DNA of 64,000 nt from a virus (IMGVR_UViG_3300029516_000004:31480-95479); one strand, 5' to 3'; positions 910 to 52,779 are shown, numbered from the stretch's first letter. Notes: generated by a model not told the origin, from the letters alone. Translations and numbers: made by a program.

Positions 910-943
910 ATAACTTCGTATAATGTATGCTATACGAAGTTAT
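910..943. other. loxP: loxP recombination site (34 bp)
   Basis: Exact ATAACTTCGTATAATGTATGCTATACGAAGTTAT: 13-bp inverted repeats flanking 8-bp spacer. Confidence 0.98.
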
Positions 944-986
944 TAGGTCTGAAGAGGGGTTTACTTCCAGCTGCGCATAAAAATCA

Positions 987-1003
987 AGAATTATTAGAGC
1001 AAT
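987..1003. promoter_or_regulatory. C1 operator-like 17-mer (reverse orientation)
   Basis: agAATTATTAGAGCAAT, 15/17 match to reverse complement of ATTGCTCTAATAAATTT. Confidence 0.6.
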
Positions 1004-1069
1004 AAATTTTGAGAGAAAAATCCCACTCCACCAGCCAAAAACTGGATTGCTTTTCATAGTTGTTTGACA

Positions 1070-1086
1070 ATTGCTCTAATAAATTA
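1070..1086. promoter_or_regulatory. C1 operator 17-mer upstream of coi-c1
   Basis: ATTGCTCTAATAAATTA (16/17), immediately preceded by TTGACA. Confidence 0.7.
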
Positions 1087-1324
1087 TAGTTTTGCCGCCG
1101 TTTCGTAATACGACTTTGGATTCACTATTTAATGTGTCTTCAGCGTTGTAGAGCGGCTCAGAAGGAAATGAGCAAACAGGGAAACCTTATACAACGGCAT
1201 TACAGCTATGCATTGCTCATCTTACACACAGCGCAATGTTGTTAGATTACCCCAGCATGGATCATGGGTGAAACAGTAGGTCAGAGCTTCAGGCTCTGTG
1301 TTGTCAATACAGTGAGGCATAATT

Positions 1325-1534
1325 ATGGCTTTCATTCCACCAACCATCGACGACGTTAGACATTGCTCTAACGCTTTATCTGTAGACCCTGCCGAAACCG
1401 ACGCTGCCCGCGCCATTGCTGAACACTACTCAAAGATATCCAATCAGGAGTACCGCATCACCCAAGACGACCTGGATGATCTCACTGACACAATCGAATA
1501 TCTCATGGCCACTAACCAGCCAGACTCACAATAA
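1325..1534 (+). CDS. coi: Coi, C1 inactivator (69 aa)
   Basis: 69-aa ORF directly upstream of c1 in same orientation; size and position match P1 coi. Confidence 0.75.
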   Translation: MAFIPPTIDDVRHCSNALSVDPAETDAARAIAEHYSKISNQEYRITQDDLDDLTDTIEYLMATNQPDSQ

Positions 1535-1644
1535 ATGCACTAATAAATCTATTATTTTCGTTGGATCCTTCTATAATGGTGGCCAACAACTCCCAGTGTA
1601 ATCCGCTGTGAGTTGTTGGCCATGTCAATTCTGGAGGAGGATCA

Positions 1645-2496
1645 ATGATAAATTATGTCTACGGCGAACAACTGTACCAGGAGTTCGTCAGCTTCAGGGA
1701 TCTCTTTCTAAAAAAAGCTGTTGCACGCGCCCAACACGTTGATGCCGCCAGCGACGGTCGTCCTGTACGCCCGGTTGTCGTTCTGCCGTTCAAAGAAACG
1801 GACAGCATTCAGGCTGAAATTGATAAATGGACTTTAATGGCGCGGGAACTGGAACAGTACCCAGATCTCAATATCCCAAAGACTATTTTATATCCTGTGC
1901 CTAACATCCTTCGCGGTGTGCGTAAGGTTACGACTTATCAGACAGAAGCTGTGAACAGCGTCAATATGACCGCTGGCCGCATTATTCATCTGATTGATAA
2001 GGACATTCGCATCCAAAAAAGCGCGGGGGTCAATGAGCACAGTGCGAAATACATAGAGAACCTGGAAGCAACAAAAGAGCTAATGAAGCAGTACCCGGAG
2101 GATGAAAAATTCCGTATGCGCGTACACGGCTTTAGCGAAACAATGCTGCGCGTCCATTACATTTCCAGTAGCCCTAACTACAATGATGGTAAATCAGTTA
2201 GTTACCATGTGCCGCTATGTGGCGTGTTTATCTGCGATGAAACTCTCCGAGATGGAATCATCATCAACGGTGAATTTGAGAAAGCAAAATTTAGCCTTTA
2301 TGACTCTATAGAACCGATCATCTGCGACCGCTGGCCGCAGGCAAAAATATATCGCCTGGCAGATATTGAAAATGTAAAAAAACAAATTGCCATCACTCGC
2401 GAAGAGAAAAAGGTCAAATCAGCCGCATCAGTTACGCGCAGCCGTAAAACTAAGAAGGGGCAGCCAGTAAACAGCAACCCCGAAAGCGCGCAATAG
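1645..2496 (+). CDS. c1: C1 repressor of lytic functions (283 aa)
   Basis: 283-aa ORF with strong GGAGGAGG RBS, between coi and pacB as in P1; its predicted 17-bp operator recurs at about 12 sites in the window. Confidence 0.85.
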   Translation: MINYVYGEQLYQEFVSFRDLFLKKAVARAQHVDAASDGRPVRPVVVLPFKETDSIQAEIDKWTLMARELEQYPDLNIPKTILYPVPNILRGVRKVTTYQTEAVNSVNMTAGRIIHLIDKDIRIQKSAGVNEHSAKYIENLEATKELMKQYPEDEKFRMRVHGFSETMLRVHYISSSPNYNDGKSVSYHVPLCGVFICDETLRDGIIINGEFEKAKFSLYDSIEPIICDRWPQAKIYRLADIENVKKQIAITREEKKVKSAASVTRSRKTKKGQPVNSNPESAQ

Positions 2497-2521
2497 TTTT
2501 CCATCCGGCATGGTCAAATTG

Positions 2522-4006
2522 TTATTCATTAAGCCATGCCAGAGCTTCATCAACCTGCGCTTCGTCTTCGACGCTAAGCACTTCATCTTGGGGAACATAG
2601 TTCGCCAACATAGCGAAACAATATGTATCCCAATGGTCCGGTGAGTGCAGGTTGAGTTTTTTCTTCATATCTTCCTTTGACATCACCTTCCATTGACCTG
2701 CGGAATTTATCCCTACCGGTATCTTTGATGCTTCCTCTATAGTCGCAGCCCCCTTATCAAGCCGCATACGCCCTGATTTTACAGCTTCTGCCGCCTGAAT
2801 ATTCGCGAAAGCGCGCATATCGAAATAAAGGCTTTTATCTTCACGGCTGTGCATCTTTTTACCCCAGCGGATACGCTGGACGGTAATACCATAGCGTTCG
2901 TACATCAGATCAGCCGTCGATTTCCCCAAGCCATCGCCATCAATAGCTATGGTTATGTTCGGGAACCGTTCTGGGTTACATTCTGCGAAAATCTTGGCGG
3001 CTAACTGCGTTTCTGTAACGTCTGTGTATTCCAGCATACGATAGTTGATTACACGGCGTTTATTTCGCTGGCCGGACACCATCATGATATTAATAACGGA
3101 CTTATCTCGTCCTGCGCCACCAGCAACGTCAACACATGCAACCCAGCCCCATCCTTTGGCAATCTTGACCTTTCGCCGCGTCGCCCGCTCAACCTCATCA
3201 CGACCAAGAAGAAAGCCATCTTGAGATTTGGGAAATTCACCACGTACTTTAATCATATACATGGGGTTATCACGACCGCCATACTCCGCAAGTTTTGCTC
3301 GTATAAATTTTGCATCTACAAGCGGAGATTCTTCACTATTCAGTATTATCGCAGTAAACAATCCATCAGGATTTCCCGGGCGAATAGCTAGTCTGTGGTG
3401 TGAATCGTAGAAATAGCCTGAAGGTCGCGTAGGCTGGGAAAGAAGCAGAATACGGTTATCCTTACCGGTCAGCGCACCTGTTATCACACTGAATGCTTTA
3501 TCACTCACACCCGACGCTTCGTCGATGATATACAAGAGATGATCGGCGTGTTCACCAGCCAACGCCTCCTCATTTCCGGGGCGACAGGACTTTATCAATA
3601 TTGTCCAAACACCCTTGCCAGTCACCTCAAAAAAAGACGTTTCTGTAAGAATGAAATACTTCGACAACCACGGGAATCTGCTAACAGCAGTAGCCCAATT
3701 GCTCTTTATGTATTTGAAAATACCATCAAGGACTTGCTGTCTTTTGTTAGCGACCAGAATAACGCGAGCGCCGGGGAAAAACATGATGAAGAGTATTGCA
3801 ATGATACTCGTCATATCCGACTTACCAGTACCATGGCCGGAGGTCACACTTGTCCAACTGCCGTCCTGCTGCGTGGACTCAATGATCTCATCCTGCTGCC
3901 AGGTTGGTGTCTTCCCAAACAACACATCAGCGGCCGCAATCCAGTCATAACGATATAGCGCCACCAGCTCGCGCCAACGTGGGTCCGTTACGCAACTTCT
4001 GGCCAT
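2522..4006 (-). CDS. pacB: PacB terminase large subunit (494 aa)
   Basis: 494 aa, start overlaps pacA stop; synteny pacA-pacB-c1. Confidence 0.85.
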
Positions 4007-5199
4007 TAATCATCATCCCCGTACAGTTTGCGGGTAACTTCTTCGTCTTCCTCCTCGTCTTCGTCCAGATCCTGTTCAAGCCATGCTTCGTTTGATATGC
4101 CTTCCGCATCGACATCACCATAACCACCTGTATCGACGATATCGGCAATTTCTTCTCTACGATGCTCAATCCACAATGCGGCATCAGCGCGGCGGCTGGC
4201 GGCCCGTTCTCGCGCGATTTTATCCAGATCTTCAAGTGATGGAGCGCCAGATGCTGTTTGGTTTTCCTCGTCATCGGTATTGGTCTTAGGAGCACGCAGA
4301 TCGGCTTTGATTTGCTCCAGCATCAGGGGCGGCACTTTCCCTCCATGCGCCTCGATGAATTCAGCTGCTTCCAGCACTGACCAGTTATTTTCACGCTTTC
4401 GTTCGTATGCCAGCTTAACAATGCCAGCTTGCCCCATAGATAAAGCGTGCTTTTCCGCCTCCCGGCTTTCTTTTCGATAGTTATTCCGGATGCTGTAAAT
4501 GGTGTTGATCAGGCTGCTTATCTGCGCGGAACAGCTGTTTAGCATGCTCGCGATACGGTATTCAGGCGGAGTACCTTCATCATCGTCTTTTTGCTGATCG
4601 CGCATTTCCTGCACCAGGCGAATACACGTATCCCTGGCGTTCTCCAGCATAAGGAGATGAGAAAGAGACTTTTCAAGAAGAGTGGTTTCCAGAACATCGG
4701 CCCCGGACCGACGCAACATAGCGCGCGCGGCCTTCCGTGCTTCAACGTTATCTATCAGGTAATCGCCAGCTTCGAATTCAAAGCGTTCACCATCATCATC
4801 CAGGGTGTCGCGTTCCAGGCGATCACGTAAGGTACGGTGGGCGCGAGTGATCACGTCATGATCATCAGAACGATCATTTATGCGCTTATTTTGGCGCTTA
4901 GCGTTCTCGACTGCGGCACTGACAACAGCATTAACTCTTTGTTTTTCAGCCATTTCAGCCACAATGTGATCACCTGCACGTTGATCATTAGCGTGATCAA
5001 TGATCATGCTTTTTAGTGGTTTCCTGACAGGCTTATTTGGCTTACGACTGTCCGCTGTTCCGGTGTCTTCTTTGAATGCACGGAGATAACGACGTGCGGT
5101 GTTTGGGTTGAGATTAAACTCGGCGGCATATTGTGCGATGGTGTAACCACCATCTCGCGCCAGGCGAGCAAAATTCTTCTTGTGATCGTCCCAGGTCAC
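4006..5199 (-). CDS. pacA: PacA terminase subunit (397 aa), contains pac site
   Basis: 397 aa; the GATC-hexamer pac site lies in its 5' coding region. Confidence 0.85.
4821..5008. other. pac: pac packaging site with clustered TGATCA/G hexamers
   Basis: Two clusters of four Dam-site hexamers each (around 4821-4876 and 4965-5006) flanking a central segment, inside pacA. Confidence 0.75.
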
Positions 5200-5826: not shown

Positions 5827-6870
5827 TTATCTAACGCTCAACGAGTGACTTGTGATAGCGCCGACTCCAAGCGCGTAATCAAAGAACAATCGTTGATGCA
5901 TCGCCAGCCTACCGTGCGTCTTCTCCCAATTATCGCGGTCACGCTCAATATCACGCTGGCATGACTGGCACAGAGGAATTGCGTAAATGTCATGCGCGCA
6001 TAATCGACTATGACGAACAATATAAGGCGTAATGTGAGCGCCAGCTCCCGCCGCTCCACACCCACAGCATGGACGGGAAGCAACAAAGTCCATGTACTCA
6101 GGTAATTTTAGCGATTGCAGTTTTGGTATTTTGAAATGCGCCATGCCAGGGTCGGAGTCAACATCCACAGGGCATACTTTTGCACGCATCGGCGCGGCGC
6201 GTTCTTCCATCATCTGAACATATGCTGTAGCGCGATCGTCATACGGGCGAATATCCGCCTCTTTCAGAGGTCCGCTATCCTGCGTTGCGGCTTTCATCTT
6301 ATTTATTGATATACGGCAAACTTCTTCCGGCATCAGGTGCATCATGTTGCGCATGAAAGCCCACCAGCACAGTTCCTGAATACTTAAATCATGGCCATCT
6401 GAAAGCCCCATTTCCTGACGGGCGACATCCAGTATCCAGTTAACGCGATTATTATGCAGCGTTTCTTTCAGCTCATTAAAACCACGCATCCGGTAATGGT
6501 TATCGTGATGCCAGCACAGCAACACCGCGCTATTGTCTCGTTCAGCGTGGACAATATGGTTGTCACACCAACTATGATCTGCGGCCTGGCATCGCCCCTC
6601 TTTCCTGCGCAACCACGCCACCAGCGCGTCAATTCCACCAATACGACGAAACAGCTCATCGCTGTTAAAAAACGGCTGCAACGCCTCATTTGTTGCCATG
6701 GTTTGCTCGGAAACAACGAGGCCGTCGTCCATGTGCTCGATTAACTCACGCGGCACCGGCTCCATAATAAATTTACGGCCAGCCTCCACCAGCTTTCTGA
6801 CCTCCTGATCCACTTTGAACGTGGCGAGGCCAAGCTCTTTCTGTACAAAGGGAGTAATTACGGCTTTCAC
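5827..6870 (-). CDS. hypothetical Cys/His-rich protein (347 aa), post-doc region
   Basis: ORF-track ORF; motifs CWHHDNH and [12 protein letters not shown]...CQSCQ suggest a metal-binding, possibly HNH-like, fold. Confidence 0.6.
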
Positions 6871-6897
6871 ATCACACCTTTAATCACTGATTGGGCT

Positions 6898-7098
6898 TTA
6901 TCTGCTGCCCGGCATTCTCTGTTTAAGCACAACCATTTCCTGACGGCATAACACAGCAATAGCGGTCCTGGCACCAATTTGCTTACCAACCAGGTATTGC
7001 TTTACCTTGCGGCGACTCACGCCATCAAGAAGCATCTTTAACGCTTCACGGGACAATTTGTTGTATTTGCGTGCCATTAATCTACTCCGCAGAACCAT
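6898..7098 (-). CDS. hypothetical small basic protein (66 aa)
   Basis: ORF immediately downstream of doc, overlapping its stop. Confidence 0.45.
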
Positions 7099-7462
7099 AC
7101 AATCTACGTAACGTGTCGGCGACAGAAGATACAGATATCTCGCCAGTCGCAGCGCCTACGGTAAGGTCTGCCAGTTCAGGTGAATCAAATACCTGCACCC
7201 CGTTACGGCGTAGAAATAGCAGCGCACTGTTTAGCGCGGTACGCTTATTGGCATCATTGAATATATGCCCTCTCGCTGTAGCCACCAGGTAGGTGGCGGA
7301 GACTTCGAAAAGGTCGGTGATCTCTTCGTAGGCAACTCTGGCCTGAACTCTCCCGATAATGGCCTCTGCCCTACCCGGATCTGACATTCCCGGCAGGCCG
7401 CCGTAGCGGTTTATATTCGCATCATGAAGCGCAATAAGTTCTTCCGGTGATATATGCCTCAT
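7082..7462 (-). CDS. doc: Doc toxin (Fic-fold kinase), 126 aa
   Basis: [43 protein letters not shown]... recognised as P1 Doc; start overlaps phd stop. Confidence 0.95.
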
Positions 7463-7683
7463 TATCGGTTAACCAGTTCCTTGTTGGTGGAGTCCAGGGT
7501 GTCAAACAGGGATGCAAATTCAGCATCCAGCGCCGCTTTTTTGTAGGCTTCGAAAGTAGCCTTGCTGACAATTACTGCTGGCTCACGGCCTCTGCGGGTG
7601 ATTTCAACCTCTTCCCCGGCCTCAACATTGTTGAGCACTTCAGAAAGGTTGCCGCGCGCGGTACGGAAGTTAATGGATTGCAT
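7462..7683 (-). CDS. phd: Phd antitoxin, 73 aa
   Basis: [73 protein letters not shown] recognised as P1 Phd. Confidence 0.95.
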
Positions 7684-7692
7684 AAATACCTC

Positions 7693-7720
7693 GTGTACTC
7701 GTTATGTGTACACAATTATA
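7693..7720 (-). promoter_or_regulatory. phd-doc promoter/operator with GTGTAC palindromes
   Basis: TATAAT (minus strand, 7715-7720) followed by TGTGTACACA and GTGTAC half-sites just upstream of phd RBS. Confidence 0.5.
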
Positions 7721-7859
7721 AACTTCACAGGCATAAAGCACCAGCACTTTGCGGCTTAACAAACCTCTAGGCAGGTCATTCGTAGCCTAATGTCCGAACT
7801 GCTAAAGCATCCAAGTTGCTGTAGAATCACCGCCAATTACATAAGCCTGAAATAAGTGG

Positions 7860-9422
7860 ATGAAAATGACAAGTATTCAACAACGTGCAGAGCTTCATCG
7901 TCAAATCTGGCAAATTGCTAACGATGTCAGGGGTTCGGTCGATGGATGGGATTTTAAGCAATACGTTCTGGGCGCACTTTTCTACCGTTTTATCAGCGAA
8001 AATTTTTCCAGCTATATTGAAGCCGGGGATGACAGTATCTGTTATGCGAAACTGGATGACAGCGTAATTACTGATGACATTAAAGACGATGCTATCAAAA
8101 CTAAAGGCTACTTCATCTACCCCAGTCAGCTTTTCTGCAACGTAGCGGCGAAAGCAAATACCAATGACAGACTGAATGCAGATTTAAACAGCATCTTCGT
8201 TGCTATCGAAAGTTCTGCTTACGGTTATCCTTCAGAAGCTGACATCAAAGGTTTGTTTGCTGATTTCGATACCACCAGTAACCGCCTGGGTAACACCGTT
8301 AAAGATAAAAATGCCCGCCTGGCTGCGGTTCTGAAAGGGGTTGAAGGGTTAAAACTTGGTGACTTCAACGAACATCAGATTGACCTGTTCGGTGATGCCT
8401 ATGAGTTCCTGATCTCTAACTATGCGGCAAATGCCGGTAAGTCAGGCGGCGAGTTCTTTACACCGCAGCACGTCTCTAAGCTGATTGCACAACTGGCTAT
8501 GCACGGGCAGACCCACGTTAACAAAATCTACGACCCGGCAGCAGGCTCCGGTTCGCTGTTGTTGCAGGCTAAAAAACAGTTTGATGACCATATCATCGAA
8601 GAAGGTTTTTTTGGTCAGGAAATCAACCATACGACCTATAACCTGGCGCGTATGAACATGTTTTTGCACAACATCAACTACGACAAGTTTGATATCAAGC
8701 TGGGCAATACGCTGACTGAACCGCACTTCAGAGATGAAAAACCGTTTGATGCCATCGTTTCTAACCCGCCGTATTCGGTGAAATGGATTGGCAGCGATGA
8801 CCCGACGCTGATTAACGATGAACGTTTTGCCCCGGCTGGCGTTCTGGCCCCCAAATCCAAAGCTGACTTTGCGTTTGTATTACATGCGCTGAACTATCTT
8901 TCTGCCAAAGGTCGTGCTGCGATTGTTTGCTTCCCGGGTATTTTTTACCGTGGCGGTGCGGAGCAGAAAATCCGTCAGTATCTGGTCGACAATAACTATG
9001 TCGAAACCGTGATTTCACTGGCACCGAATCTGTTCTTTGGCACCACCATTGCCGTCAATATTCTGGTGCTGTCTAAACATAAAACCGATACCAAAGTTCA
9101 GTTTATTGACGCCAGCGAACTATTCAAAAAAGAGACCAACAACAATATCCTGACCGATGCCCATATCGAACAGATTATGCAGGTATTTGCCAGCAAGGAA
9201 GATGTTGCTCATCTGGCGAAATCAGTCGCGTTTGAGACCGTTGTTGCTAATGACTATAACCTGTCGGTGAGCAGCTATGTTGAAGCGAAAGATACTCGCG
9301 AAATTATCGATATCGCTGAGTTGAATGCAGAGCTGAAAACCACGGTCAGCAAAATCGACCAGTTGCGTAAAGATATTGATGCAATTGTGGCTGAAATTGA
9401 AGGCTGCGAGGTGCAGAAATGA
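7860..9422 (+). CDS. hsdM: Type I R-M N6-adenine DNA methyltransferase HsdM (520 aa)
   Basis: Motif [12 protein letters not shown] and motif IV SNPPY; translationally coupled to hsdS (ATGA overlap). Confidence 0.95.
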
Positions 9423-10636
9423 GCGAGTTGAGTTATCTGGAAAAATTGATGGATGGGGTTGAAGTTGAGTGGTTGCCACTCTCAAAAGTATTCAACTTAA
9501 GGAATGGTTATACACCGTCTAAAACTAAAAAAGAATTTTGGGCGAATGGTGATATACCTTGGTTCAGAATGGATGACATACGTGAAAATGGTAGAATTCT
9601 AGGGAGTTCACTTCAAAAAATTTCATCCTGCGCCGTAAAAGGGGGGAAACTATTTCCTGAAAATTCAATATTAATATCAACGTCGGCAACAATTGGTGAG
9701 CATGCTTTAATCACTGTACCTCATCTAGCCAATCAAAGGTTTACATGTTTGGCTTTAAAAGAGTCTTATGCTGATTGCTTTGATATTAAATTTTTATTTT
9801 ACTACTGTTTTTCTTTAGCTGAGTGGTGCCGAAAAAACACAACGATGTCCAGTTTTGCGTCTGTTGATATGGATGGATTCAAAAAATTTTTAATCCCTCG
9901 CCCCTGCCCGGATAATCCGGAAAAATCCCTTGCCATCCAGTCTGAAATCGTGCGAATTCTGGACAAATTCAGCGCCCTTACTGCAGAGCTTACTGCAGAG
10001 CTTACTGCAGAGCTTAGCATGCGTAAAAAACAATACAACTACTATCGCGACCAGTTGTTGAGTTTTAAAGAGGATGAGGTTGAGGGTAAGAGGAAAACCT
10101 TAGGGGAAATTATGAAGATGCGTGCCGGACAACATATTTCGGCTCATAATATAATTGAAAGAAAAGAAGAGAGTTATATATATCCTTGTTTTGGAGGAAA
10201 TGGCATACGGGGTTACGTCAAAGAAAAAAGTCATGATGGAGAACATCTATTAATAGGGCGACAAGGAGCATTGTGTGGTAATGTTCAAAGAATGAAAGGC
10301 CAGTTCTATGCTACAGAACATGCTGTTGTAGTTTCAGTCATGCCCGGGATTAACATTGACTGGGCATTTCATATGTTAACGGCAATGAATCTAAACCAAT
10401 ATGCTTCAAAATCGGCACAACCGGGACTTGCTGTAGGGAAATTACAGGAATTGAAATTATTTGTCCCTTCAATAGAGAGACAAATATATATTGCCGCAAT
10501 ACTCGATAAATTCGACACTCTGACCAACTCCATCACCGAAGGTCTCCCGCGTGAAATCGAGTTACGCCAGAAACAGTACGAATATTATCGAGATATGCTA
10601 TTTAGTTTCCTGAAGCCGGAAGTAGCAGAGGCATGA
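9419..10636 (+). CDS. hsdS: Type I R-M specificity subunit HsdS, type IC-like (405 aa)
   Basis: Two AT-rich variable TRD-like halves separated by a conserved central region carrying [13 protein letters not shown]; conserved C-terminal repeat region. Confidence 0.92.
9977..10012 (+). repeat. 3 x 12-bp in-frame tandem repeat CTTACTGCAGAG encoding (LTAE)x3 in hsdS central spacer
   Basis: Perfect triplicate at 9977-9988, 9989-10000, 10001-10012, plus partial fourth unit. Confidence 0.95.
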
Positions 10637-10637
10637 C

Positions 10638-11828
10638 ATGGGCAAGACACTCTCGGAAATAGCTCAACAGCTTAGTACGCCTCAGAAAGTCAAGAAGACT
10701 GTCCATAAAGAAGTTGAAGCGACCAGGGCCGTGCCAAAGGTGCAGTTAATCTACGCTTTCAATGGCACGGGGAAAACGCGTCTTTCCCGGGATTTCAAGC
10801 AACTGCTTGAGTCCAAAGTTCATGACGGAGAAGGTGAAGACGAAGCTGAACAGTCCGCGTTGTCGCGCAAAAAAATCCTCTATTATAATGCCTTCACCGA
10901 GGACTTGTTCTATTGGGATAACGATCTGCAAGAAGACGCAGAACCGAAGCTGAAGGTGCAGCCTAACTCCTATACAAACTGGTTGCTGACCTTGCTAAAA
11001 GATTTGGGACAGGATAGCAATATCGTCCGTTATTTCCAGCGCTATGCGAACGACAAGCTAACGCCACACTTCAATCCAGATTTTACCGAAATCACTTTTT
11101 CCATGGAGCGCGGTAACGATGAGCGTTCCGCCCACATCAAGTTATCCAAAGGTGAAGAGAGCAACTTCATCTGGAGTGTGTTTTACACCCTACTGGATCA
11201 AGTGGTAACAATTCTCAATGTCGCTGACCCGGATGCGCGCGAGACCCACGCATTTGATCAACTGAAATATGTATTCATTGATGATCCCGTTAGCTCCCTT
11301 GATGATAACCACTTGATTGAACTGGCGGTTGATCTTGCAGGGCTGATCAAATCCAGCGAATCCGATTTGAAGTTCATTATCACGACACATAGTCCAATAT
11401 TTTATAATGTACTTTTCAATGAGTTGAACGGTAAAGTTTGCTACATGTTGGAAAGTTTTGAGGATGGTACATTTGCCCTCACAGAAAAATATGGCGACTC
11501 TAACAAGAGTTTTTCCTACCATCTCCACCTAAAGCAAACAATCGAACAGGCAATTGCTGACAACAACGTTGAAAGATATCATTTCACGTTACTGCGCAAT
11601 CTTTATGAGAAAACGGCCAGCTTTCTGGGCTACCCTAAATGGTCTGAACTCTTGCCTGACGACAAGCAGCTTTATCTGAGCAGAATCATCAATTTCACAA
11701 GCCACAGCACGCTATCGAATGAGGCCGTTGCAGAGCCAACGCCAGCGGAGAAAGCGACTGTCAAACTGTTGCTCGATCACTTGAAGAACAACTGTGGCTT
11801 CTGGCAGCAGGAACAAAAAAATGGTTGA
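10638..11828 (+). CDS. prrC: PrrC-type anticodon nuclease (396 aa) embedded in hsd locus
   Basis: N-terminal Walker A FNGTGKTR; C-terminal R-x3-E (LRNLYEKT) with His 36 residues later, falling at positions 320/324/356; gene order hsdM-hsdS-prrC-hsdR. Confidence 0.85.
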
Positions 11829-14800
11829 TTGCACCAAACCAATTGCTGAGTCCAATAATTTTATCATTTTGGACAAATACAACCCGGACTGGAAGATTAC
11901 CGAGAGCTACCAGAGCGAAGGTGATCTGGAGCGTGAGCTGATTCAGGATTTGGTTAACCAGGGCTATGAATACCTGCCAACCCTGAACAACACCAAGGCT
12001 ATGCTCGCTAATGTCAGGGAACAGTTGCAAAACCTTAACAATGTAGAGTTCCTGGAGGCTGAATGGCGTCGCTTTGTGGAAACCTGGATGGACAAGCCCA
12101 GCGATGGCGTTGTTGAAAAGGCCCGCAAGATTCATGATGATTATGTTCATGATTTCGTCTTCGACGATGGCCGTATTCAGAATATCTATCTGCTGGATAG
12201 AAAAAACATCCTTCGCAATAAAGTGCAGGTCATCAAGCAGTTTGAACAAGCAGGCACGCACGCCAATCGCTACGATGTCACCATTCTGGTCAATGGCCTG
12301 CCGCTGGTACAAATTGAATTGAAAAAACGTGGTGTAGCGATTCGTGAGGCTTTCAACCAGATACATCGTTACAGTAAAGAGAGTTTTAACAGCGAAAATT
12401 CCCTGTTTAAGTATCTGCAGCTGTTCGTCATTTCCAACGGCACTGATACCCGTTATTTTGCCAACACCACAAAGCGCGATAAAAACAGTTTTGACTTCAC
12501 CATGAACTGGGCTAAATCAGACAATACACTGATTAAAGACCTCAAAGACTTTACCGCTACCTTTTTCCAGAAACATACTCTGCTTAATGTTCTGGTGAAC
12601 TACAGCGTTTTTGACAGCAGTCAGACGCTACTGGTAATGCGACCGTACCAGATTGCCGCCACCGAGCGCATTCTGTGGAAAATTAAGAGTTCCTTTACAG
12701 CGAAGAACTGGTCAAAACCGGAAAGCGGTGGGTATATCTGGCACACTACCGGTTCTGGTAAAACCCTCACCAGCTTTAAAGCCGCGCGTCTGGCAACAGA
12801 ACTGGACTTTATTGATAAAGTTTTCTTTGTGGTCGACAGGAAAGACCTCGATTACCAGACCATGAAGGAATATCAGCGTTTTTCGCCAGACAGCGTCAAC
12901 GGCTCGGAAAATACCGCAGGCCTTAAACGAAATCTGGATAAGGACGATAACAAAATTATCGTCACTACTATTCAGAAACTCAATAACCTGATGAAAGCAG
13001 AAAGCGACCTGCCTGTATATAATCAGCAAGTGGTGTTTATATTTGATGAATGCCACCGCAGCCAGTTTGGAGAAGCGCAGAAAAACCTGAAGAAGAAATT
13101 CAAACGCTATTATCAGTTTGGTTTTACCGGCACCCCTATTTTCCCGGAAAACGCCTTAGGCTCAGAAACAACCGCCAGCGTATTTGGTCGTGAATTGCAT
13201 TCGTATGTAATTACCGATGCGATTCGTGACGAAAAAGTGCTCAAATTCAAGGTGGACTACAACGATGTGCGGCCACAGTTTAAGTCTTTAGAGACAGAAA
13301 CTGACGAGAAAAAACTGAGTGCGGCTGAAAATCAGCAGGCGTTTCTTCATCCCATGCGTATTCAGGAAATCACGCAATATATTCTGAATAATTTCCGCCA
13401 GAAAACCCACCGTACCTTCCCTGGCTCAAAAGGTTTTAATGCTATGTTGGCAGTGAGCAGCGTGGATGCCGCGAAAGCCTATTATGCGACGTTTAAACGG
13501 TTACAAGAAGAAGCCGCTAATAAATCGGCTACCTATAAACCGCTGCGTATTGCGACAATCTTCTCCTTTGCCGCCAATGAAGAACAAAATGCCATTGGTG
13601 AAATTTCCGATGAAACTTTTGATACCAGCGCAATGGACAGCAGTGCTAAAGAGTTTCTGGACGCTGCAATTCGTGAATATAACAGCCATTTTAAAACTAA
13701 CTTTAGCACCGACAGTAACGGTTTTCAGAACTACTATCGTGATTTAGCCCAGCGGGTTAAAAATCAGGATATCGATCTGCTAATTGTCGTGGGGATGTTT
13801 TTAACCGGTTTCGATGCTCCAACATTAAACACGCTATTCGTCGATAAAAACTTGCGTTTTCACGGCCTGATGCAGGCATTCTCCCGCACCAACCGCATTT
13901 ATGACGCGACTAAAACCTTCGGTAATATTGTCACGTTCCGAGATCTGGAACGCTCAACCATTGATGCCATAACGCTGTTTGGTGACAAAAATACCAAAAA
14001 TGTGGTTTTAGAAAAGAGTTATGCAGAGTATATGGAAGGCTTTACTGATGCTGCCACTGGTGAAGCTAAGCGCGGCTTTATGGCAGTAGTTTCAGAACTG
14101 GAACAACGGTTCCCTGACCCTACCAGTATTGAAAGTGAAAAAGAGAAGAAAGACTTCGTTAAACTGTTTGGTGAATACCTGCGTGCCGAGAACATCCTGC
14201 AAAACTATGATGAATTTGCCACGCTGAAAGCCCTGCAACAAATCGATCTTAGCGATCCTGTTGCGGTAGAAAAATTCAAAGAAGAACATTATGTGGATGA
14301 TGAAAAGTTCGCTGAATTGCAAACGATTCGTCTCCCTGCTGAACGCAAGATTCAGGATTATCGTTCTGCCTATAACGATATTCGTGACTGGCAGCGCCGC
14401 GAGAAAGAAGCTGATAAAAAAGAAAAATCAACCACTGACTGGGATGACGTGGTTTTTGAGGTCGATTTGCTGAAGTCTCAGGAAATAAACCTGGATTATA
14501 TCCTTGGACTGATTTTCGAACACAACAGACAAAATAAAGGCAAGGGCGAAATGATCGAAGAGGTCAAACGCTTAATTCGTTCAAGCCTGGGGAACCGGGC
14601 GAAAGAGGGCCTGGTGGTCGATTTTATTCAGCAAACGAACCTGGATGATTTACCAGACAAAGCCAGTATCATTGAGGCATTCTTTACGTTTGCTCAACGC
14701 GAACAGCAACGTGAAGCAGAAGCATTGATAAAAGAAGAAAATCTCAATGAAGATGCAGCAAAACGCTATATTCGCACGTCTTTAAAACGCGAATACGCCA

Positions 14801-14940
14801 CCGAAAATGGCACAGAATTAAACGAAACATTACCAAAACTTAGTCCGTTGAATCCGCAATATAAAACGAAAAAACAGGCAGTTTTCCAGAAAATCGTCTC
14901 GTTTATTGAGAAGTTTAAAGGCGTAGGCGGAAAAATATAG
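11821..14940 (+). CDS. hsdR: Type I R-M restriction endonuclease/translocase HsdR
   Basis: PD-(D/E)xK-like D..ELK ([18 protein letters not shown]), helicase motif I HTTGSGKT, motif II DECH; ORF-track start 11794 lacks RBS, ATG at 11821 has AGGAAC RBS. Confidence 0.93.
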
Positions 14941-14956
14941 CCCAATTCGTGTTTTT

Positions 14957-14984
14957 CTTGCGGGTTCTTAATTAAACCCGCAAG
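14957..14984. other. 10-bp-stem hairpin downstream of hsdR
   Basis: CTTGCGGGTT-cttaatta-AACCCGCAAG perfect inverted repeat; no U-tract on either strand. Confidence 0.4.
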
Positions 14985-15019
14985 AGCTCGTGGGGTTCCA
15001 AATGGCTAATATACTCCCC

Positions 15020-15106
15020 TTACCCATGCGCGACGATGCCGCCAAAAGTGATAGAGAACAGCCAGAAATAGATCGCGGCCATAATGATTTTGAATGCCGT
15101 GTTCAT
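15020..15106 (-). CDS. candidate small hydrophobic peptide (28 aa)
   Basis: Manual translation MNTAFKIIMAAIYFWLFSITFGGIVAHG; AGGAG RBS 7 nt upstream; below ORF-track size cut-off; downstream of a C1 operator. Confidence 0.3.
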   Translation of the reverse strand: MNTAFKIIMAAIYFWLFSITFGGIVAHG

Positions 15107-15134
15107 ATTTTCAGCTCCTGTGATTGATTGGATA

Positions 15135-15165
15135 CATGCCGCGCCTTGCGGCATGTTTTTATTTT
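15135..15165 (+). terminator. rho-independent terminator ending the hsd operon
   Basis: CATGCCGC-gcctt-GCGGCATG 8-bp stem followed by TTTTTATTTT. Confidence 0.65.
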
Positions 15166-15188
15166 CACTTCCCCTGCCTTAAAAATCT

Positions 15189-15205
15189 ATATTTATTAGA
15201 GCAAT
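15189..15205. promoter_or_regulatory. C1 operator 17-mer at the distal edge of the hsd island
   Basis: ATATTTATTAGAGCAAT (16/17, reverse orientation); candidate -35 TTCATC and -10 TAAATA overlap on minus strand. Confidence 0.65.
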
Positions 15206-15711
15206 TATTGTTGATGAAGAAGCGCATTTTCATACTCCCTGACCATTAATGTAAGTACGCCGTGACTCCTGAAAACACGCGCCACTTCAATCTTATCTTC
15301 CAGCGCGAACGCAATTTTACTTAGACCAATTTTCTTCAGGAGATCAATCTTTGCTGGACCGTCATTTCTGTCATCGGTGGCAGGACGCATAGATAGCAAA
15401 GGCTCCGCCCCATTTGTTACGTGCTTACGCAACCAGGCTCGTGTTTTATCCCTGGCTATCTCACAGCGCCCGGTTACAAACCAGAGGGTGTAAATGCCGG
15501 ACAACTGGCGCACCATATCAATAACTGGAGTGATGGGAGCATCAGTGTCACAGGCAAGGTTAAACTCGTTCCAGTGCTCTGTTAATGCACCTTTGCCAGG
15601 TGGTGGAAGTAAATGCAGCCTGTCTTCCGTTGCCTCTGATATCGTCCCATCAATATCTACTATGACGATGTACGGACGTTCCTGGTGTGCGTGTTTATTG
15701 AAAATACTCAA
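15205..15711 (-). CDS. HAD-superfamily phosphatase-like protein (168 aa)
   Basis: N-terminal VIVDIDGTIS (DxDGT catalytic motif of HAD phosphatases, as in polynucleotide 3'-phosphatases). Confidence 0.7.
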   Translation of the reverse strand: MSIFNKHAHQERPYIVIVDIDGTISEATEDRLHLLPPPGKGALTEHWNEFNLACDTDAPITPVIDMVRQLSGIYTLWFVTGRCEIARDKTRAWLRKHVTNGAEPLLSMRPATDDRNDGPAKIDLLKKIGLSKIAFALEDKIEVARVFRSHGVLTLMVREYENALLHQQ

Positions 15712-15783: not shown

Positions 15784-17046
15784 TCAGCGAACGTAAATAG
15801 TGCCGCCGTTCTCTTTTTCCCATGCATCGCTACGTGCATAGCAAACATCGAGAAGTCTTCTTGCCGCAGTTTCCTCTAAACCCAATTCGACAACCAACTG
15901 CTCATGACGGCGGGTAACCACATCAAACAGGGTATGCAGCCCTTTAGTTGCCAGATCATCAATGAATTCCGGTTCGAACGGCAGCTCTGCATCTGCCAAC
16001 ATAACCTCTTGCGCCCACTCAACTCGACGGACCAATTCCGGGCGACGGCTTTCCATCTCTTTACAGATCAATTCATGGAAGAACTCTACCCAACCTTCCG
16101 GCTGGAACTCGCGGAAAATTGCCAACGGCTGGAAGTTTGGCATCAACCATTCGTTGATTCGGATATCAATGGCATAGCCCATGTCGCAGCAGAACTGATA
16201 AGCAAAGTCCAGCTTAGAAACGATATAAGGACGCTCGTTATTGAACTCTTTAGGCGATGAGATCCCATAAGCCAGGAGGCGCGGGAAGAAGGAGATTTGC
16301 CCTAACGTCGGATGAAGTTTGCTTGCAGGGAAACGGCGCTCAGTAATGCCATACATTTCCTTCTTGAGCGTCGCAAATTTGGCATTCTCATTAACCAGCG
16401 CGGTAACCTCTGCTTTTTTATTAGCAAATGCCACGCGCGCCTCGCTTGCATCTTTAATAGTTTTTTTGAGCTGTTGGTTAAGGTCGGCGACCTGCTTACG
16501 CAGTTCCTGTCGCTCGCTTTTAGCTTTGTTATAGCGTTTCTCAAGGTTAAAAGGATCAAGTTTCATGATCTCTTTATATTGAGATTTTAGCGTTGAAATC
16601 TGTGAGTTCCGCAGTTCAACCATCGCAGTCATTTCATTGAGTTTTGTTTCCAGCTCAATGCTTATACGTTCGGCATTATCAGCACGCTGGTTGGCGTCAT
16701 GCGTCGCATCGTCGATCGCGTCCTGTTGCTGGCGTTTCAAATGTTCAATTTCCAGCTGAAGCTCTTCAATTTCTTTACCCTTCAGACCGAGATCCAACTG
16801 CATATTTTCAGCTGCATCTACCAGGGAGTTATGGCTATCAGCTTCTGCGTTATAAACATCAATAAGCTGTGCGTGAAGCATCTCCGCTGACTGAACCGCA
16901 TTATCAAAAAAACGTGCTGTGAGGTCATCACAACTAACGCGGCGTTGCGCGGCCCGGATGTTCTGGATAATGGCCGGGATACCGGCATTCAGGACATCAG
17001 GGATACATACATTTTCGATTGATTGGTTTTGTGCTGAAGTGCTCAT
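15784..17046 (-). CDS. hypothetical protein with long coiled-coil segment (420 aa)
   Basis: ORF-track ORF; heptad-rich central region (ELQLEIEHLKRQQQ...). Confidence 0.6.
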   Translation of the reverse strand: MSTSAQNQSIENVCIPDVLNAGIPAIIQNIRAAQRRVSCDDLTARFFDNAVQSAEMLHAQLIDVYNAEADSHNSLVDAAENMQLDLGLKGKEIEELQLEIEHLKRQQQDAIDDATHDANQRADNAERISIELETKLNEMTAMVELRNSQISTLKSQYKEIMKLDPFNLEKRYNKAKSERQELRKQVADLNQQLKKTIKDASEARVAFANKKAEVTALVNENAKFATLKKEMYGITERRFPASKLHPTLGQISFFPRLLAYGISSPKEFNNERPYIVSKLDFAYQFCCDMGYAIDIRINEWLMPNFQPLAIFREFQPEGWVEFFHELICKEMESRRPELVRRVEWAQEVMLADAELPFEPEFIDDLATKGLHTLFDVVTRRHEQLVVELGLEETAARRLLDVCYARSDAWEKENGGTIYVR

Positions 17047-17280: not shown

Positions 17281-17346
17281 ATTGCTCTAATAAAAAACGT
17301 GATGAGTGTACATCACGTTTTAAAAATATGGAATTATTAGAGCAAT
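17281..17346. promoter_or_regulatory. two inverted C1 operator-like 17-mers flanking a bidirectional terminator hairpin
   Basis: ATTGCTCTAATAAAAAA (17281-17297), hairpin ACGTGATG-agtgta-CATCACGT with flanking A/T runs, then GGAATTATTAGAGCAAT (17330-17346). Confidence 0.6.
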
Positions 17347-45653: not shown

Positions 45654-45677
45654 AAAGCTCCTTCGGGAGCTTTTTTT
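45654..45677 (+). terminator. rho-independent terminator ending the head/sheath operon
   Basis: AAAGCTCC-ttcg-GGAGCTTT followed by TTTTT. Confidence 0.7.
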
Positions 45678-45805
45678 ATAACTATTTTATATAAACATGC
45701 ATCGATAACATTGTCTGGAGTTTTATGTTAGATTATTAATGTTCTAATAAACTACAATTATTGAGGTAGATGTTTGTGCCTGTACTGTTAAAGGGGGACT
45801 CTAAA

Positions 45806-46402
45806 ATGGCTGTGATTCCAATGTCGTACTCCCCGGGTACTGTCGCTCGTCGATTTTCGATCCTGGACGGAGTTACCATCCAGGGTGTGCTTTACCAGGT
45901 TATATGGGATTCCAAAACCCCATTTGCAGCTGTAATAGAGGCTGCGCCTTCTATTATCGATGGTGATATGCGCCATAAGGTTGTCGCCACTCTTGAACTT
46001 CAACGTCGCCCACAGCTTGAAGGCGTACTGGTGAGGAAGTTCTGGGAAGATAACGATGTTGCCCAGATTGAAGGTATCGTGGTTGATGGAATCGTCCGGG
46101 ATGTCGGTTTAGCCACTTTTGTTTATGAAACCGTAGCTTCAAAAGCCGGAGTTGTTTTGCTAAGTGACAATGAGCAATACGAAGGCGGAAAGGCTCTTTG
46201 GCAGCACATCGCTCGTCGTTCTTCCGAACTAAAAGTTTTTATCCTGGACACCGATACTGCTCAGTATTACCCATTTGATGGCGAACGTGTTTGCTATGAC
46301 GGGAAAAGTATTCCTGAATCCGAGATATGGAGTGAACATCCGGATCGAAGTAAGCATGGGGTTGTTCTTGTCGCAGAATCCATAACTGGAAAGGCGGCAT
46401 AG
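45806..46402 (+). CDS. hypothetical protein in an isolated transcription unit
   Basis: ATG at 45806 has AAGGGGGAC RBS (ORF track begins 45770); AT-rich upstream region after a terminator. Confidence 0.5.
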   Translation: MAVIPMSYSPGTVARRFSILDGVTIQGVLYQVIWDSKTPFAAVIEAAPSIIDGDMRHKVVATLELQRRPQLEGVLVRKFWEDNDVAQIEGIVVDGIVRDVGLATFVYETVASKAGVVLLSDNEQYEGGKALWQHIARRSSELKVFILDTDTAQYYPFDGERVCYDGKSIPESEIWSEHPDRSKHGVVLVAESITGKAA

Positions 46403-46689
46403 CAGTAAAAAATTCCTTGCTCCTTGACAGAGGAGAGGATTAATCTAAGTACGCTAAGCATAGGTATGGCCCCGGTTAATGTTAAGCGTTGTGCGGGACG
46501 CATAATGTTTACTGGGGCTTTCTTTTACCTATTTTGGGATAATCCTGAATTCCGTAGTATTTTGTATCGGCTGCGGCTGCATCAGCGTTTGACTCTATTT
46601 CTATAGAAATCACCTGGAATGGTGAATACCCACATCAGAAGAAACGTTGCAGCAAACATGATCCCTAATGGCCAGACCGCGCCAAAGAA

Positions 46690-48050
46690 AATCCATAGTG
46701 ACTGCTCCCCGCCCTGTCGGGCGAGGCTTCCCACTTCTTAAGCCGCAACCGTCTGTGTGACGGATTTACGCTGGCCTCCATGGGCAGAAACGACGAGTCC
46801 CGCCGCTTGTAATTCCAGTATTCCCTTGCGTTTGATGTTGAGCGCCGCATTGATATCGCGGTCATGTTCAACTCCACACTCTGGACACTGCCAGAAGCGC
46901 TTATGTAATGGCATCTCCGACATTTTGTGACCGCAGCAGTGGCAGGTTTTCGAACTGGCGAACCATTGATCCAGTTTCACCAGATGCACACCTTTCTCTG
47001 TTGCTTTGTATTCCAGTTTTGTGATGAATCCAGACCATCCAGCATCGCCTATCGCACGAGCCAGATGGTGATTTTTCATCATATTTGCCGTTTTCAATGT
47101 CTCGACAATTATCGCTTGGTTTTCGTCAACAATTGCGCGAGATAACTTGTGCTGGAAATCGGCACGGGCACTGGCTACCCGTTCGTGAACGGCTGCAAGT
47201 TGTATTCTGGCTTTGCGCCTGTTTGCGCTCCCTTTTTTCTTACGGGACAGTGCTTTCTGCTTCCGGCGCAGGTTGCGACTTGCATTGATTAGGTGGCGGG
47301 GACTGGCAATTTTATTGCCGTCCGATTTGATGACAAAATGCGCCAGCCCCATATCCAGCCCTGTCACATTTGATATCAGTGCGGGCTTTGCCGGCGCTTC
47401 CATCCCGTCGTCACAGAGTAACGACGCGTAGTATTTCCCGGTTGCGCTGCGGCTCAACGTGATACTTTTCAGCATTCCCGTAATTTCACGATGTAAACGC
47501 GCTTCAATCGGCAAGATTTTCGGTATTTTTATCGCACCATCAAGGACTTTTATGCCAACACAATGATAGCTAGATTGTCTGCCGTGTTTACTTTTAAAGG
47601 TAGGTTTACCTGCTTTCAGTTTCGGATTGAAAAAGTTAGAAAAAGCCACGTCGAGGTTAATTACCGCCTGCTGCAACGCAATAGAATCATATTCTTTAAG
47701 CCATCCATACCGGCGGGATTTCTTCGCCACTGCAAGCAGTGGTTTGAGGTCTTTACGCGGGTTTAAATTTACGCGGTGCCGCTGGTAAGAATGTTTCTTG
47801 ATATGCAGAGCTTTGTTGTACACAAAACGCACTGCACCGAACTGGGCGTTGATAAATTCAGCCTGTTCTGGTGTCGGATAGATGCGTACTTTTGTTGCTC
47901 TTAACATAGTCACCGCTCATTGGTACAGGTTTTTATGCTAACACCGTAATAATATTTTTAAAGCCCTTCGGGCTTTTCCGCCTTTCCTACCCGCCCGCAT
48001 TGGGCGAGGGTTCTCGGCGGTTTTTCGCTGAAAACGCCTGGTGACTCCAG
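46690..48050 (-). mobile_element. IS200/IS605-family insertion element carrying tnpB only (boundaries approximate)
   Basis: Intact tnpB flanked by sub-terminal hairpins sharing CGCCC-N5/6-GGGCGAGG at both ends (46713-46730 and 47997-48014) plus AAAGCCCTTCGGGCTTT hairpin at 47956-47972. Confidence 0.6.
46738..47913 (-). CDS. tnpB: TnpB (OMEGA RNA-guided nuclease; RuvC-like plus zinc finger), 391 aa
   Basis: RuvC-I GLDMG, RuvC-II IIVETLK, zinc finger CHCCGH...CPECG, RuvC-III HDRDINAALNI. Confidence 0.85.
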   Translation of the reverse strand: MTMLRATKVRIYPTPEQAEFINAQFGAVRFVYNKALHIKKHSYQRHRVNLNPRKDLKPLLAVAKKSRRYGWLKEYDSIALQQAVINLDVAFSNFFNPKLKAGKPTFKSKHGRQSSYHCVGIKVLDGAIKIPKILPIEARLHREITGMLKSITLSRSATGKYYASLLCDDGMEAPAKPALISNVTGLDMGLAHFVIKSDGNKIASPRHLINASRNLRRKQKALSRKKKGSANRRKARIQLAAVHERVASARADFQHKLSRAIVDENQAIIVETLKTANMMKNHHLARAIGDAGWSGFITKLEYKATEKGVHLVKLDQWFASSKTCHCCGHKMSEMPLHKRFWQCPECGVEHDRDINAALNIKRKGILELQAAGLVVSAHGGQRKSVTQTVAA

Positions 48051-51489: not shown

Positions 51490-51585
51490 ACATGCTTAAT
51501 AAATACACAATTGGATCTAATAACCTCTTTTTTTTAAAGGCGAAAATATGTACCCTAAATGAGTTATAAGGCAGGTGAGGTTATA

Positions 51586-52233
51586 ATGAGAAAACTATTA
51601 CTACCGTTATTATTTATGGCTGGGACTGTTAATGCAGCATCAAGCGTAAAGGAGATTTGTACCGATTATACGAAATACCTTGGGCACGTTTACGGCTTTG
51701 CTGTCAGTCAAGACGAATCCATGCGCAAGAAGTTACTGTCAGATATGAAACGCCTTAAACTTTCTGAAGCGATGGTGCAGCAAGAACTGTATAAAGTCGC
51801 AACCAACGAAAATGCTAAATATCAATATTCTCGCCTGTTAAATCCCGACGCAAACGAGATCAATCGAAGCTCTTTCGATTATATGGTAAAGGCATGCGAA
51901 ACCGCTCCTGATTTTGCTATTCCTAGCTGGGGTGTGCTGGTGGCGAGCAATGCCGTTAATAAAGAAGACGTTGGAAGAAATGGCATTGACTCAATCAGAA
52001 ATGCCCCAGGAATGCGCCATCAAAACGTGCAGGGTACGCTTGAAGAGCGGGCCAGGGGGCCGGGTACAAACTCCCCAATGGGAAACCTCTCACCAGAGGA
52101 ATTGCAAGAGTATAACCAACGGATGGAGCAGTATGAGAAAGCGGCACGCGAACAAATGGAACAACAAAAGAACGGCTCACTTAATACCTTTCAGCAAGGT
52201 TTAAAAGCGCTTAATTTACCCTATGAATGGTAA
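51586..52233 (+). CDS. secreted protein with cleavable signal peptide
   Basis: From Met at 51586: MRKLLLPLLFMAGTVNAASS signal peptide with GGTGAGG RBS; C-terminal PGMR...VQGTLEERARG motif also present in Sit. Confidence 0.55.
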   Translation: MRKLLLPLLFMAGTVNAASSVKEICTDYTKYLGHVYGFAVSQDESMRKKLLSDMKRLKLSEAMVQQELYKVATNENAKYQYSRLLNPDANEINRSSFDYMVKACETAPDFAIPSWGVLVASNAVNKEDVGRNGIDSIRNAPGMRHQNVQGTLEERARGPGTNSPMGNLSPEELQEYNQRMEQYEKAAREQMEQQKNGSLNTFQQGLKALNLPYEW

Positions 52234-52294
52234 ATATATTATGGATAACCAATTAAAATATTGATAATCGTTAATATCCAAAGGAGATAAATTA

Positions 52295-52771: not shown

Positions 52772-52779
52772 CCTGTCAC

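Follow-up and report, generated by a model that had tools for sequence, protein, structure and literature searches.

A probable EcoprrI-type restriction-modification locus with an embedded prrC gene in the phd-to-pap cargo slot of a P1-like phage-plasmid

The stretch IMGVR_UViG_3300029516_000004:31480-95479 (64,000 nucleotides from a virus, referred to below as the window) carries the genes hsdM, hsdS, prrC and hsdR next to the addiction operon phd-doc. Very probably this locus is an allele of EcoprrI of E. coli, i.e. the type IC restriction-modification (R-M) enzyme HsdM2-HsdS-HsdR2 accompanied by the anticodon nuclease PrrC, residing between phd and pap in a slot for exchangeable cargo on a P1-like phage-plasmid. 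The literature or annotated public records already cover the system itself, how it works, where it sits relative to phd-doc and pap and the fact that P1-like phage-plasmids carry it; as a discovery the locus is worth little, and its value is that of a well-defined natural construct for PrrC in the phage-plasmid context. It offers a clean example of a P1 cargo slot with fixed boundaries swapping dispensable genes for a defence cassette, of PrrC as a guard layered on type IC R-M, and of the diversification of HsdS by exchange of target recognition domains (TRDs) and slippage of TAEL repeats.

Gene content of the hsd-prrC block

Four intact plus-strand open reading frames (ORFs), tightly packed, fill positions 7860-14940 in the ORF listing (Table 1), and the identities and order hsdM-hsdS-prrC-hsdR put forward in the original prediction, which had been made from the sequence alone, were borne out by profile searches, by exact identity to UniProt Q47163 and by matches to PDB entries. 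The block is as compact as had been proposed: an ATGA overlap joins hsdM and hsdS, a single nucleotide separates the hsdS stop codon from the prrC start (TGA-c-ATG), and prrC and hsdR overlap by 8 nt, all three as read from the sequence, with a purine-rich Shine-Dalgarno-like stretch upstream of each of the four gene starts. The hsdR start used here is the ATG at 11821, following the annotation of CP057689.1; the mechanical ORF list takes the upstream GTG at 11794.

HsdM matches TIGR00497 hsdM (E 1.8e-195), and an exact-sequence look-up returned UniProt Q47163, “Type I restriction enzyme EcoprrI methylase subunit”; against the M protein of EcoR124II (PDB 7bst_D) it scores 1160 bits over its full length, residues 1-520. 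HsdR matches TIGR00348 (E 5.5e-223), both model matches lying far above the cut-offs, and shows the Pfam domains HSDR_N, SWI2_SNF2/ResIII, T1R_D3-like and, at the C terminus, EcoR124_C (PF12008, E 1.1e-71, residues 738-1041 of the 1048-amino acid (aa) ORF), while the alignment to EcoR124I HsdR (PDB 2w00) reaches 2180 bits across residues 4-1039. The EcoR124-family scores of HsdR and HsdM, the EcoR124_C domain and the TAEL repeats of HsdS agree with the type IC assignment made earlier.

HsdS is a specificity subunit with two TRDs, matched by Pfam Methylase_S and PADLOC Specificity_I (E 6e-159) and by no NCBIfam model; its match to the EcoR124II S protein (247 bits) is confined to conserved regions. 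Since its TRDs are unlike those of EcoR124II, its DNA target should be unlike the EcoR124II target. Centrally in hsdS lies a perfect 12-bp repeat, CTTACTGCAGAG, present 3.3 times at 9977-10016 and encoding TAEL three times. Tandem TAEL repeats in HsdS set the length of the spacer, and a 7-nt spacer goes with three repeats in EcoR124II, EcoDXXI and EcoprrI (PMC3874165); therefore a 7-nt spacer is predicted here. The closest database proteins, P0032 and P0033 (401 aa), are otherwise 99-100% identical but have two TAEL repeats, so that the three-repeat and two-repeat proteins appear to form a natural allele pair which should differ in spacer length only, N7 versus N6, like the EcoR124II/EcoR124I pair. 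One of these two proteins is encoded in E. coli NCCP 15734 by its P1-like element. The exact 405-aa HsdS sequence is absent from a collection of 15 billion proteins, and none of the 120 homologues listed is named as EcoprrI S; the specificity may therefore differ from CCA(N7)RTGC, that of EcoprrI.

The 396-aa product of prrC matches the PADLOC model PrrC PDLC02360 with E 6.1e-148 (protein residues 3-395 against model positions 19-353 of 372). This whole-length match covers the C-terminal nuclease domain, over which the original prediction had expected alignment to PrrC. Among Pfam families only AAA_13 was matched, over part of the protein, and searches gave no NCBIfam model match and no PDB sequence match at E <= 0.01. 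We compared all 17 positions that are numbered for E. coli PrrC in Blanga-Kanfi et al. 2006 (PMC1484252), and every one of them is conserved: K46, K168, K171, D222, H251, D287, S288, F292, Y294, H295, H315, R320, E324, K325, D341, H356 and E371. Motifs of the ABC-type NTPase (nucleoside triphosphatase) thus stand at the published positions, with Walker A at K46, followed by K168, the signature at K171, Walker B at D222 and the linchpin H251, and the catalytic triad Arg320-Glu324-His356, as defined in PMC1484252, is intact. Residues 284-294, which include D287, S288, F292 and Y294, form an 11-mer identical to the “LARP” peptide, the tRNA-Lys recognition stretch; its sequence is given in PMC1950546, and the stretch is limited to the subset of E. 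coli-type PrrC. By sequence, then, the 396-aa protein is collinear with the prototype tRNA-Lys anticodon nuclease and functionally indistinguishable from it. The position of its gene between hsdS and hsdR in an EcoprrI-like type I locus is a further likeness, the linkage of prrC to type I hsd loci being described in PMC1484252 and PMC3458546. The exact protein was found on 88 contigs.

If the present copy acts as its prototype (PMC3014915, PMC12707154, PMC3874165, PMC1484252), the Hsd complex of a lysogen would methylate its bipartite target and cut unmodified incoming DNA, with PrrC held latent on the complex. An invader disabling the restriction enzyme, of which T4 Stp is the known case, would unmask PrrC by a process involving GTP hydrolysis and dTTP as co-activator, and the unmasked nuclease would cleave tRNA-Lys 5′ of the wobble base and halt translation in the infected cell. 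According to the same four sources, Stp is a 26-residue inhibitor of type IC enzymes and T4 counters PrrC by means of Pnk and Rnl1.

Boundaries with the P1-like backbone

Over the part compared, which is all but positions 927-4598, the window runs collinear with P1 through packaging, lysis-control, immunity, replication, partition, tail and baseplate genes, at identities of 96.5-98.8%. Besides the cassette, four short segments are unmatched to P1, and three of them fall at published variable regions or at the tail-fibre end. The C1 operator motif (ATTGCTCTAATAAATTT) is matched 14 times with at most three mismatches, against 0.36 matches expected in the window. On the left flank the phd-doc operon is 97.7% identical to P1, and its adjacency to the block, as anticipated, is supported both by Pfam matches and by P1 annotation. 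P1 homology ends at 7759 and resumes at 15016, with both junctions (7759/7760 and 15015/15016) sharp in blastn. The non-P1 segment 7760-15015 thus amounts to 7256 bp standing in place of 3487 bp of P1 with the genes humD, lxr, hot, upfO/N/M and pmgV/U/T, none of which lytic growth requires. In P1-like phage-plasmids this interval is known as “variable region 8” (PMC9603915).

The alignment to P1, which had been suggested as a way to define the junctions and the displaced backbone (humD-lxr-hot-upfMNO-pmgVUT), does define them, and it changes the picture in two respects. Instead of an insertion between phd-doc and a neighbouring operon, there is an allelic replacement of 3487 bp of P1 from humD to pmgT; and of the extent 7760-15205 first assigned to the locus, the start coincides exactly with the left junction but the end overshoots the right one by 190 bp. 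The reading of the block as exchangeable, dispensable cargo stands. So do its orientation opposite to the minus-strand flanks and its lower G+C content: 43.8% versus 47.6% for the whole window, with 0.4% of windows of the same size being as low, essentially the lowest value. A search of 7650-15250 for repeats, direct or inverted, that link one junction to the other found none. Transposition or site-specific insertion of the cassette was considered and is unsupported, given the lack of junction-pairing repeats; hence the exchange most likely proceeded via homologous recombination in the conserved flanks.

P1 and plasmids both with and without hsd share the right-hand 190 bp (15016-15205), which are P1 backbone, and this bears on two further elements of the original prediction. 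A terminator-like structure indeed exists there, a hairpin of 10 pairs, six of them G-C, followed by the T-run TTTTTATTTT, oriented for the hsd operon; it is present in P1 itself, however, and is backbone rather than part of the cargo. Because the T-run lies on the plus strand only, the hairpin would stop hsd transcripts and not those from PpmgT. The C1 operator at the end of pap is likewise real (one mismatch to the consensus), but it is OpmgT (Op88) of P1, where by annotation it controls the leftward-reading pmgT promoters (P1pmgT/P2pmgT), and the flanking pmgR-pmgS operon, to which C1 control had been ascribed, is by P1 annotation under Op86a/b instead (17281-17297 and 17330-17346). As pmgT is gone here, the promoter is orphaned and reads towards the 3′ end of hsdR. 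Downstream of it lies a conserved, hydrophobic minus-strand ORF of 28 codons (MNTAFKIIMAAIYFWLFSITFGGIVAHG) with an AGGAG Shine-Dalgarno sequence; P1 carries no annotation for it, and in SJ46 a “membrane protein” is annotated under the match to window positions 15016-15300. No minus-strand terminator lies between the orphaned pmgT promoter and the hsdR 3′ end. One may speculate, with little confidence, that the cassette is wired into the phage immunity circuit through this C1-controlled promoter, transcription passing across the 28-codon ORF into hsdR. Were this so, loss of C1 repression upon induction or superinfection would lead to antisense transcription across hsdR and possibly prrC, and this might adjust both restriction and the suicide nuclease while P1 grows lytically. 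The same geometry of promoter and hsdR is common to every hsd-bearing allele.

The phosphatase domain of pap belongs to the polynucleotide kinase-phosphatase class of T4, which that phage uses to heal tRNA cut by PrrC. A functional pairing of pap with prrC was nevertheless rejected as a probable coincidence, pap having no kinase domain and being conserved backbone with and without prrC.

Elsewhere in the window, P1 sequence of the rlfA/rlfB/pmgF variable region is replaced by 2.4 kb at 45677-48050, encoding a TnpB/IS605 OrfB-type protein (Table 1) and including a 210-aa ORF that matched no family. The other non-P1 segments are 51726-52777 in the sim superimmunity region, 28810-29296 beside the tci region and 63337-64000 in the tail-fibre S gene; in P1-like elements the first and the last correspond to variable regions already published or to the tail-fibre end. 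At 51559-52233 a 224-aa ORF gives a weak PTP-like phytase match under the Pfam cut-off. Three minus-strand tRNA genes are present as in P1, at 28489-28564 (CAT anticodon), 29996-30071 and 30074-30149 (CAT, Thr and Asn in order); the CAT-anticodon tRNA is Met according to ARAGORN and tRNA-Ile in one RefSeq record. There is no tRNA-Lys among the tRNA genes of the window that could buffer cleavage by PrrC.

Table 1. Features of the hsd-prrC locus, its flanks and one further replaced region (positions counted from the first nucleotide of the window)
Feature	Position	Strand	Basis
doc	7082-7462	-	Pfam Fic/DOC, P1 annotation
phd	7462-7683	-	Pfam PhdYeFM_antitox, P1 annotation
First 100 bp of non-P1 DNA, upstream of hsdM	7760-7859	+	blastn junction versus P1
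hsdM, type IC methyltransferase subunit, 520 aa	7860-9422	+	TIGR00497, UniProt Q47163, PDB 7bst
hsdS, specificity subunit, 405 aa	9419-10636	+	Pfam Methylase_S, PADLOC Specificity_I
prrC, latent tRNA-Lys anticodon nuclease (by similarity), 396 aa	10638-11828	+	PADLOC PrrC PDLC02360
hsdR, type IC restriction/translocase subunit, 1039 aa	11821-14940	+	TIGR00348, Pfam, PDB 2w00
3′ tail of the non-P1 block	14941-15015	+	sequence reading, junction mapping
Conserved 28-codon hydrophobic ORF, AGGAG Shine-Dalgarno	15017-15106	-	P1 backbone, downstream of PpmgT
Intrinsic-terminator-like hairpin with T-run	15134-15166 (hairpin 15134-15156)	+	P1-homologous DNA
C1 operator OpmgT (Op88), overlapping the end of pap	15189-15205	-	one consensus mismatch, P1 annotation
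pap, phosphatase with HAD_PNKP-type domain, right flank	15205-15711	-	Pfam PF25109 (E 3e-11), P1 annotation
pmgS, right flank	15784-17046	-	P1 annotation
TnpB/IS605 OrfB-type protein, 391 aa	46738-47913	-	Pfam OrfB_IS605, Cas12f1-like_TNB

Distribution, origin and activity of the cassette

Occupancy of the slot was surveyed in PLSDB with a 300-bp query across the phd|hsdM junction, matches being counted at a coverage of at least 80%. This junction occurs in 715 plasmids versus 454 with the P1-type phd|humD junction (equivalent query), so that type IC hsd at the exact site is the commoner deposited allele; the 715 include many plasmids that are conjugative or mobilizable and not P1-like. The prrC gene is far rarer. 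Among plasmids it was found in four P1-like ones of E. coli (99.0-99.8% nucleotide identity), three of about 110 kb from Klebsiella (90%) and one from Azotobacter, while six of 5426 complete E. coli genomes carry it, four times on the chromosome; tblastn gave no match to PrrC in a phage collection of 50,697 records. For three chromosomal copies homology is limited to coding DNA, beginning with the hsdM start codon and ending with the hsdR stop codon, and the one chromosomal copy whose context was examined lies in an island beside mcrBC and CP4-type genes. Such differing contexts imply that the prrC cassette moves between them. Alleles without prrC have a 121-bp hsdS-hsdR spacer instead, homology resuming 21 bp into hsdR.

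The Klebsiella cassette is exemplified by pRJA166c of Klebsiella pneumoniae (NZ_CP019050.1), where hsdM-hsdS-prrC-hsdR occupies 6292-13312 of an IncFIB plasmid of about 110 kb, and it occurs also in NZ_CP141781.1 and NZ_CP129759.1; the 90% identity given above refers to prrC alone. It is preceded by a DUF262 gene and placed amid phage-type genes (rnhA, a phage N6-adenine methyltransferase). These plasmids resemble SSU5-type phage-plasmids, in which case prrC is present in a further phage-plasmid lineage besides the P1-like one. The 5.17-Mb “chromosome” record of E. coli NCCP 15734 includes the same cassette at 99.1% identity within a P1-like element (NZ_CP097001.1, 422572-463762), which has either integrated or been joined in during assembly.

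The exchange might also have run the other way, with the hsd cassette filling the phd-pap slot of the P1 lineage first and the humD-pmgT segment of P1 and P7 replacing it later, which we regard as possible but doubtful. The prevalence of the phd|hsdM junction in PLSDB fits this order of events, as do the identity of the junctions in all elements seen and the plus-strand, hsd-oriented terminator kept in P1, where the adjacent genes from pmgT on lie on the opposite strand. Counts of deposited plasmids are, however, biased by sampling, many plasmids among the 715 are not P1-like, and the hairpin could equally be a structure in the 5′ untranslated region of the pmgT transcript. The cassette also has the lowest G+C content in the window, and near-identical hsdM-hsdR coding DNA in unrelated chromosomal islands, as well as in Klebsiella plasmids without P1 flanks, speaks for a mobile cassette.

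Less likely still is a second alternative, a defective plasmid derived from P1 in place of an inducible phage, in which case the cassette would be ordinary plasmid-borne defence and not a means by which a prophage arms its host. One may point to the 64 kb that are visible, to the TnpB/IS605-type ORF in the rlf region, to the filing of the best-matching records as plasmids or “chromosome” and not as phages, and to the lack of any phage record with prrC. Nevertheless, the collinearity with P1 at 96.5-98.8% is interrupted by five short differing segments, of which four lie at published variable regions or the tail-fibre end, the genes replaced are non-essential, and the isolated P1-like phages vB_EcoM-673R5 and phi456 bear type IC hsd at the same site. 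That PrrC is an inactive or irrelevant silent passenger of the R-M operon is highly improbable: its presence in 4 of about 715 same-site plasmids suggests easy loss or rare selection, but the ORF is full-length with all NTPase, recognition and catalytic residues intact, the exact protein recurs on 88 contigs and the coupling to hsdS and hsdR is preserved.

Several points weigh against the assignment as a working EcoprrI allele on a phage-plasmid. Expression, restriction activity and PrrC latency of the present copy are properties that we infer from sequence identity. A consensus promoter scan flagged no promoter-like site in the 100 bp upstream of hsdM (7760-7859). In the alleles lacking prrC its place is taken by the hsdS-hsdR intergenic region, and this substitution may bear on hsdR transcription. 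The exact PrrC is listed under a UniRef entry other than that of the prototype, hence one or more residues may separate it from the published CT196 protein. Finally, as 64 kb of the element are visible, it is no more than a putative live, inducible phage. The block's own promoter region, which the original prediction had proposed, would presumably be 7760-7859, upstream of hsdM; a TAGAAT hexamer was spotted there by eye alone at 7822-7827, and the divergent minus-strand Pphd, mapped by offset from P1 to about 7714-7742, faces it. At the other end of the block, in the 3′ tail, 14957-14984 forms a hairpin with a 10-bp stem and no T tail.

Relation to known systems

The nuclease is to be distinguished from RloC, a distant PrrC homologue which likewise combines an ABC-ATPase N-domain with an anticodon-nuclease C-domain but is seldom coupled to R-M, removes the wobble nucleotide and possesses a Rad50-like zinc hook, none of which applies here. 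Among the R-M enzymes, EcoR124I and EcoR124II of plasmid R124 have HsdR and HsdM near-identical to the present ones over the full length, and TAEL repeats are found in HsdS of both; they differ in the TRDs of HsdS and in having an hsdS-hsdR intergenic region without prrC. Stp inhibits EcoR124I too (PMC3014915).

Type IC hsdMSR without prrC, as in pPK8277-98kb and the phages vB_EcoM-673R5 and phi456, has the same junctions, with hsdM and hsdR 95-97% identical in nucleotide sequence and phd-doc on the left; pap stands on the right in pPK8277-98kb and phi456, and no pap coding sequence is annotated in the vB_EcoM-673R5 stretch. Closer are pRHB17-C14_2 (CP057689.1), CP057875.1, NZ_CP116245.1, NZ_CP061756.1 and the NZ_CP097001.1 element, with 98-99% nucleotide identity over 93-100% of a 7.7-kb query in the same phd...pap context, except that NZ_CP061756.1 matches to query position 7572 only and pap is not listed there. 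The prrC gene is annotated as “anticodon nuclease” in the four plasmids and as “hypothetical protein” in NZ_CP097001.1, and the hsdS alleles of all five differ from the present one by TRD segments or by two versus three TAEL repeats.

The slot has been recognized before. In the P1 GenBank record, notes give 98% identity to a “conjugative plasmid sequence upstream of EcoDXXI hsd locus” for the DNA that starts at doc and ends shortly beyond phd, and 96-98% identity to the DNA downstream of EcoDXXI and R124/3 hsdR for that beginning at the equivalent of window position 15016, so that for R124/3, too, the sequence beyond hsdR is P1-homologous by this annotation. An hsd arrangement at P1-type flanks is already stated in the title of Tyndall et al. 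1997. The junctions in the GenBank record are the ones mapped here. That 1997 study is reported to include EcoprrI, whose locus has phd-doc on its upstream side and meets P1 DNA downstream at the same point. More recently PrrC was placed among the defence systems of phage-plasmids in a 2024 review (PMC11652158), and a 2025 preprint on 846 P1-like contigs reports that P1 elements have “PrrC (Type I RM)” as one of their defences, shared with phage-plasmids of the SSU5 group. The novelty implied by the original prediction is therefore lost: among deposited plasmids, type IC hsd occupies this site more often than the P1-type allele does and has been in print since 1997, and P1-like phage-plasmids were already reported to carry PrrC.

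The nearest characterized relative is EcoprrI, whose prr locus (prrA-prrB-prrC-prrD = hsdM-hsdS-prrC-hsdR; Levitz 1990, Tyndall 1994) has the same gene order and the same 396-aa PrrC length; HsdM is identical to the present one, so are the mapped PrrC residues together with the LARP stretch, and HsdS contains three TAEL repeats.

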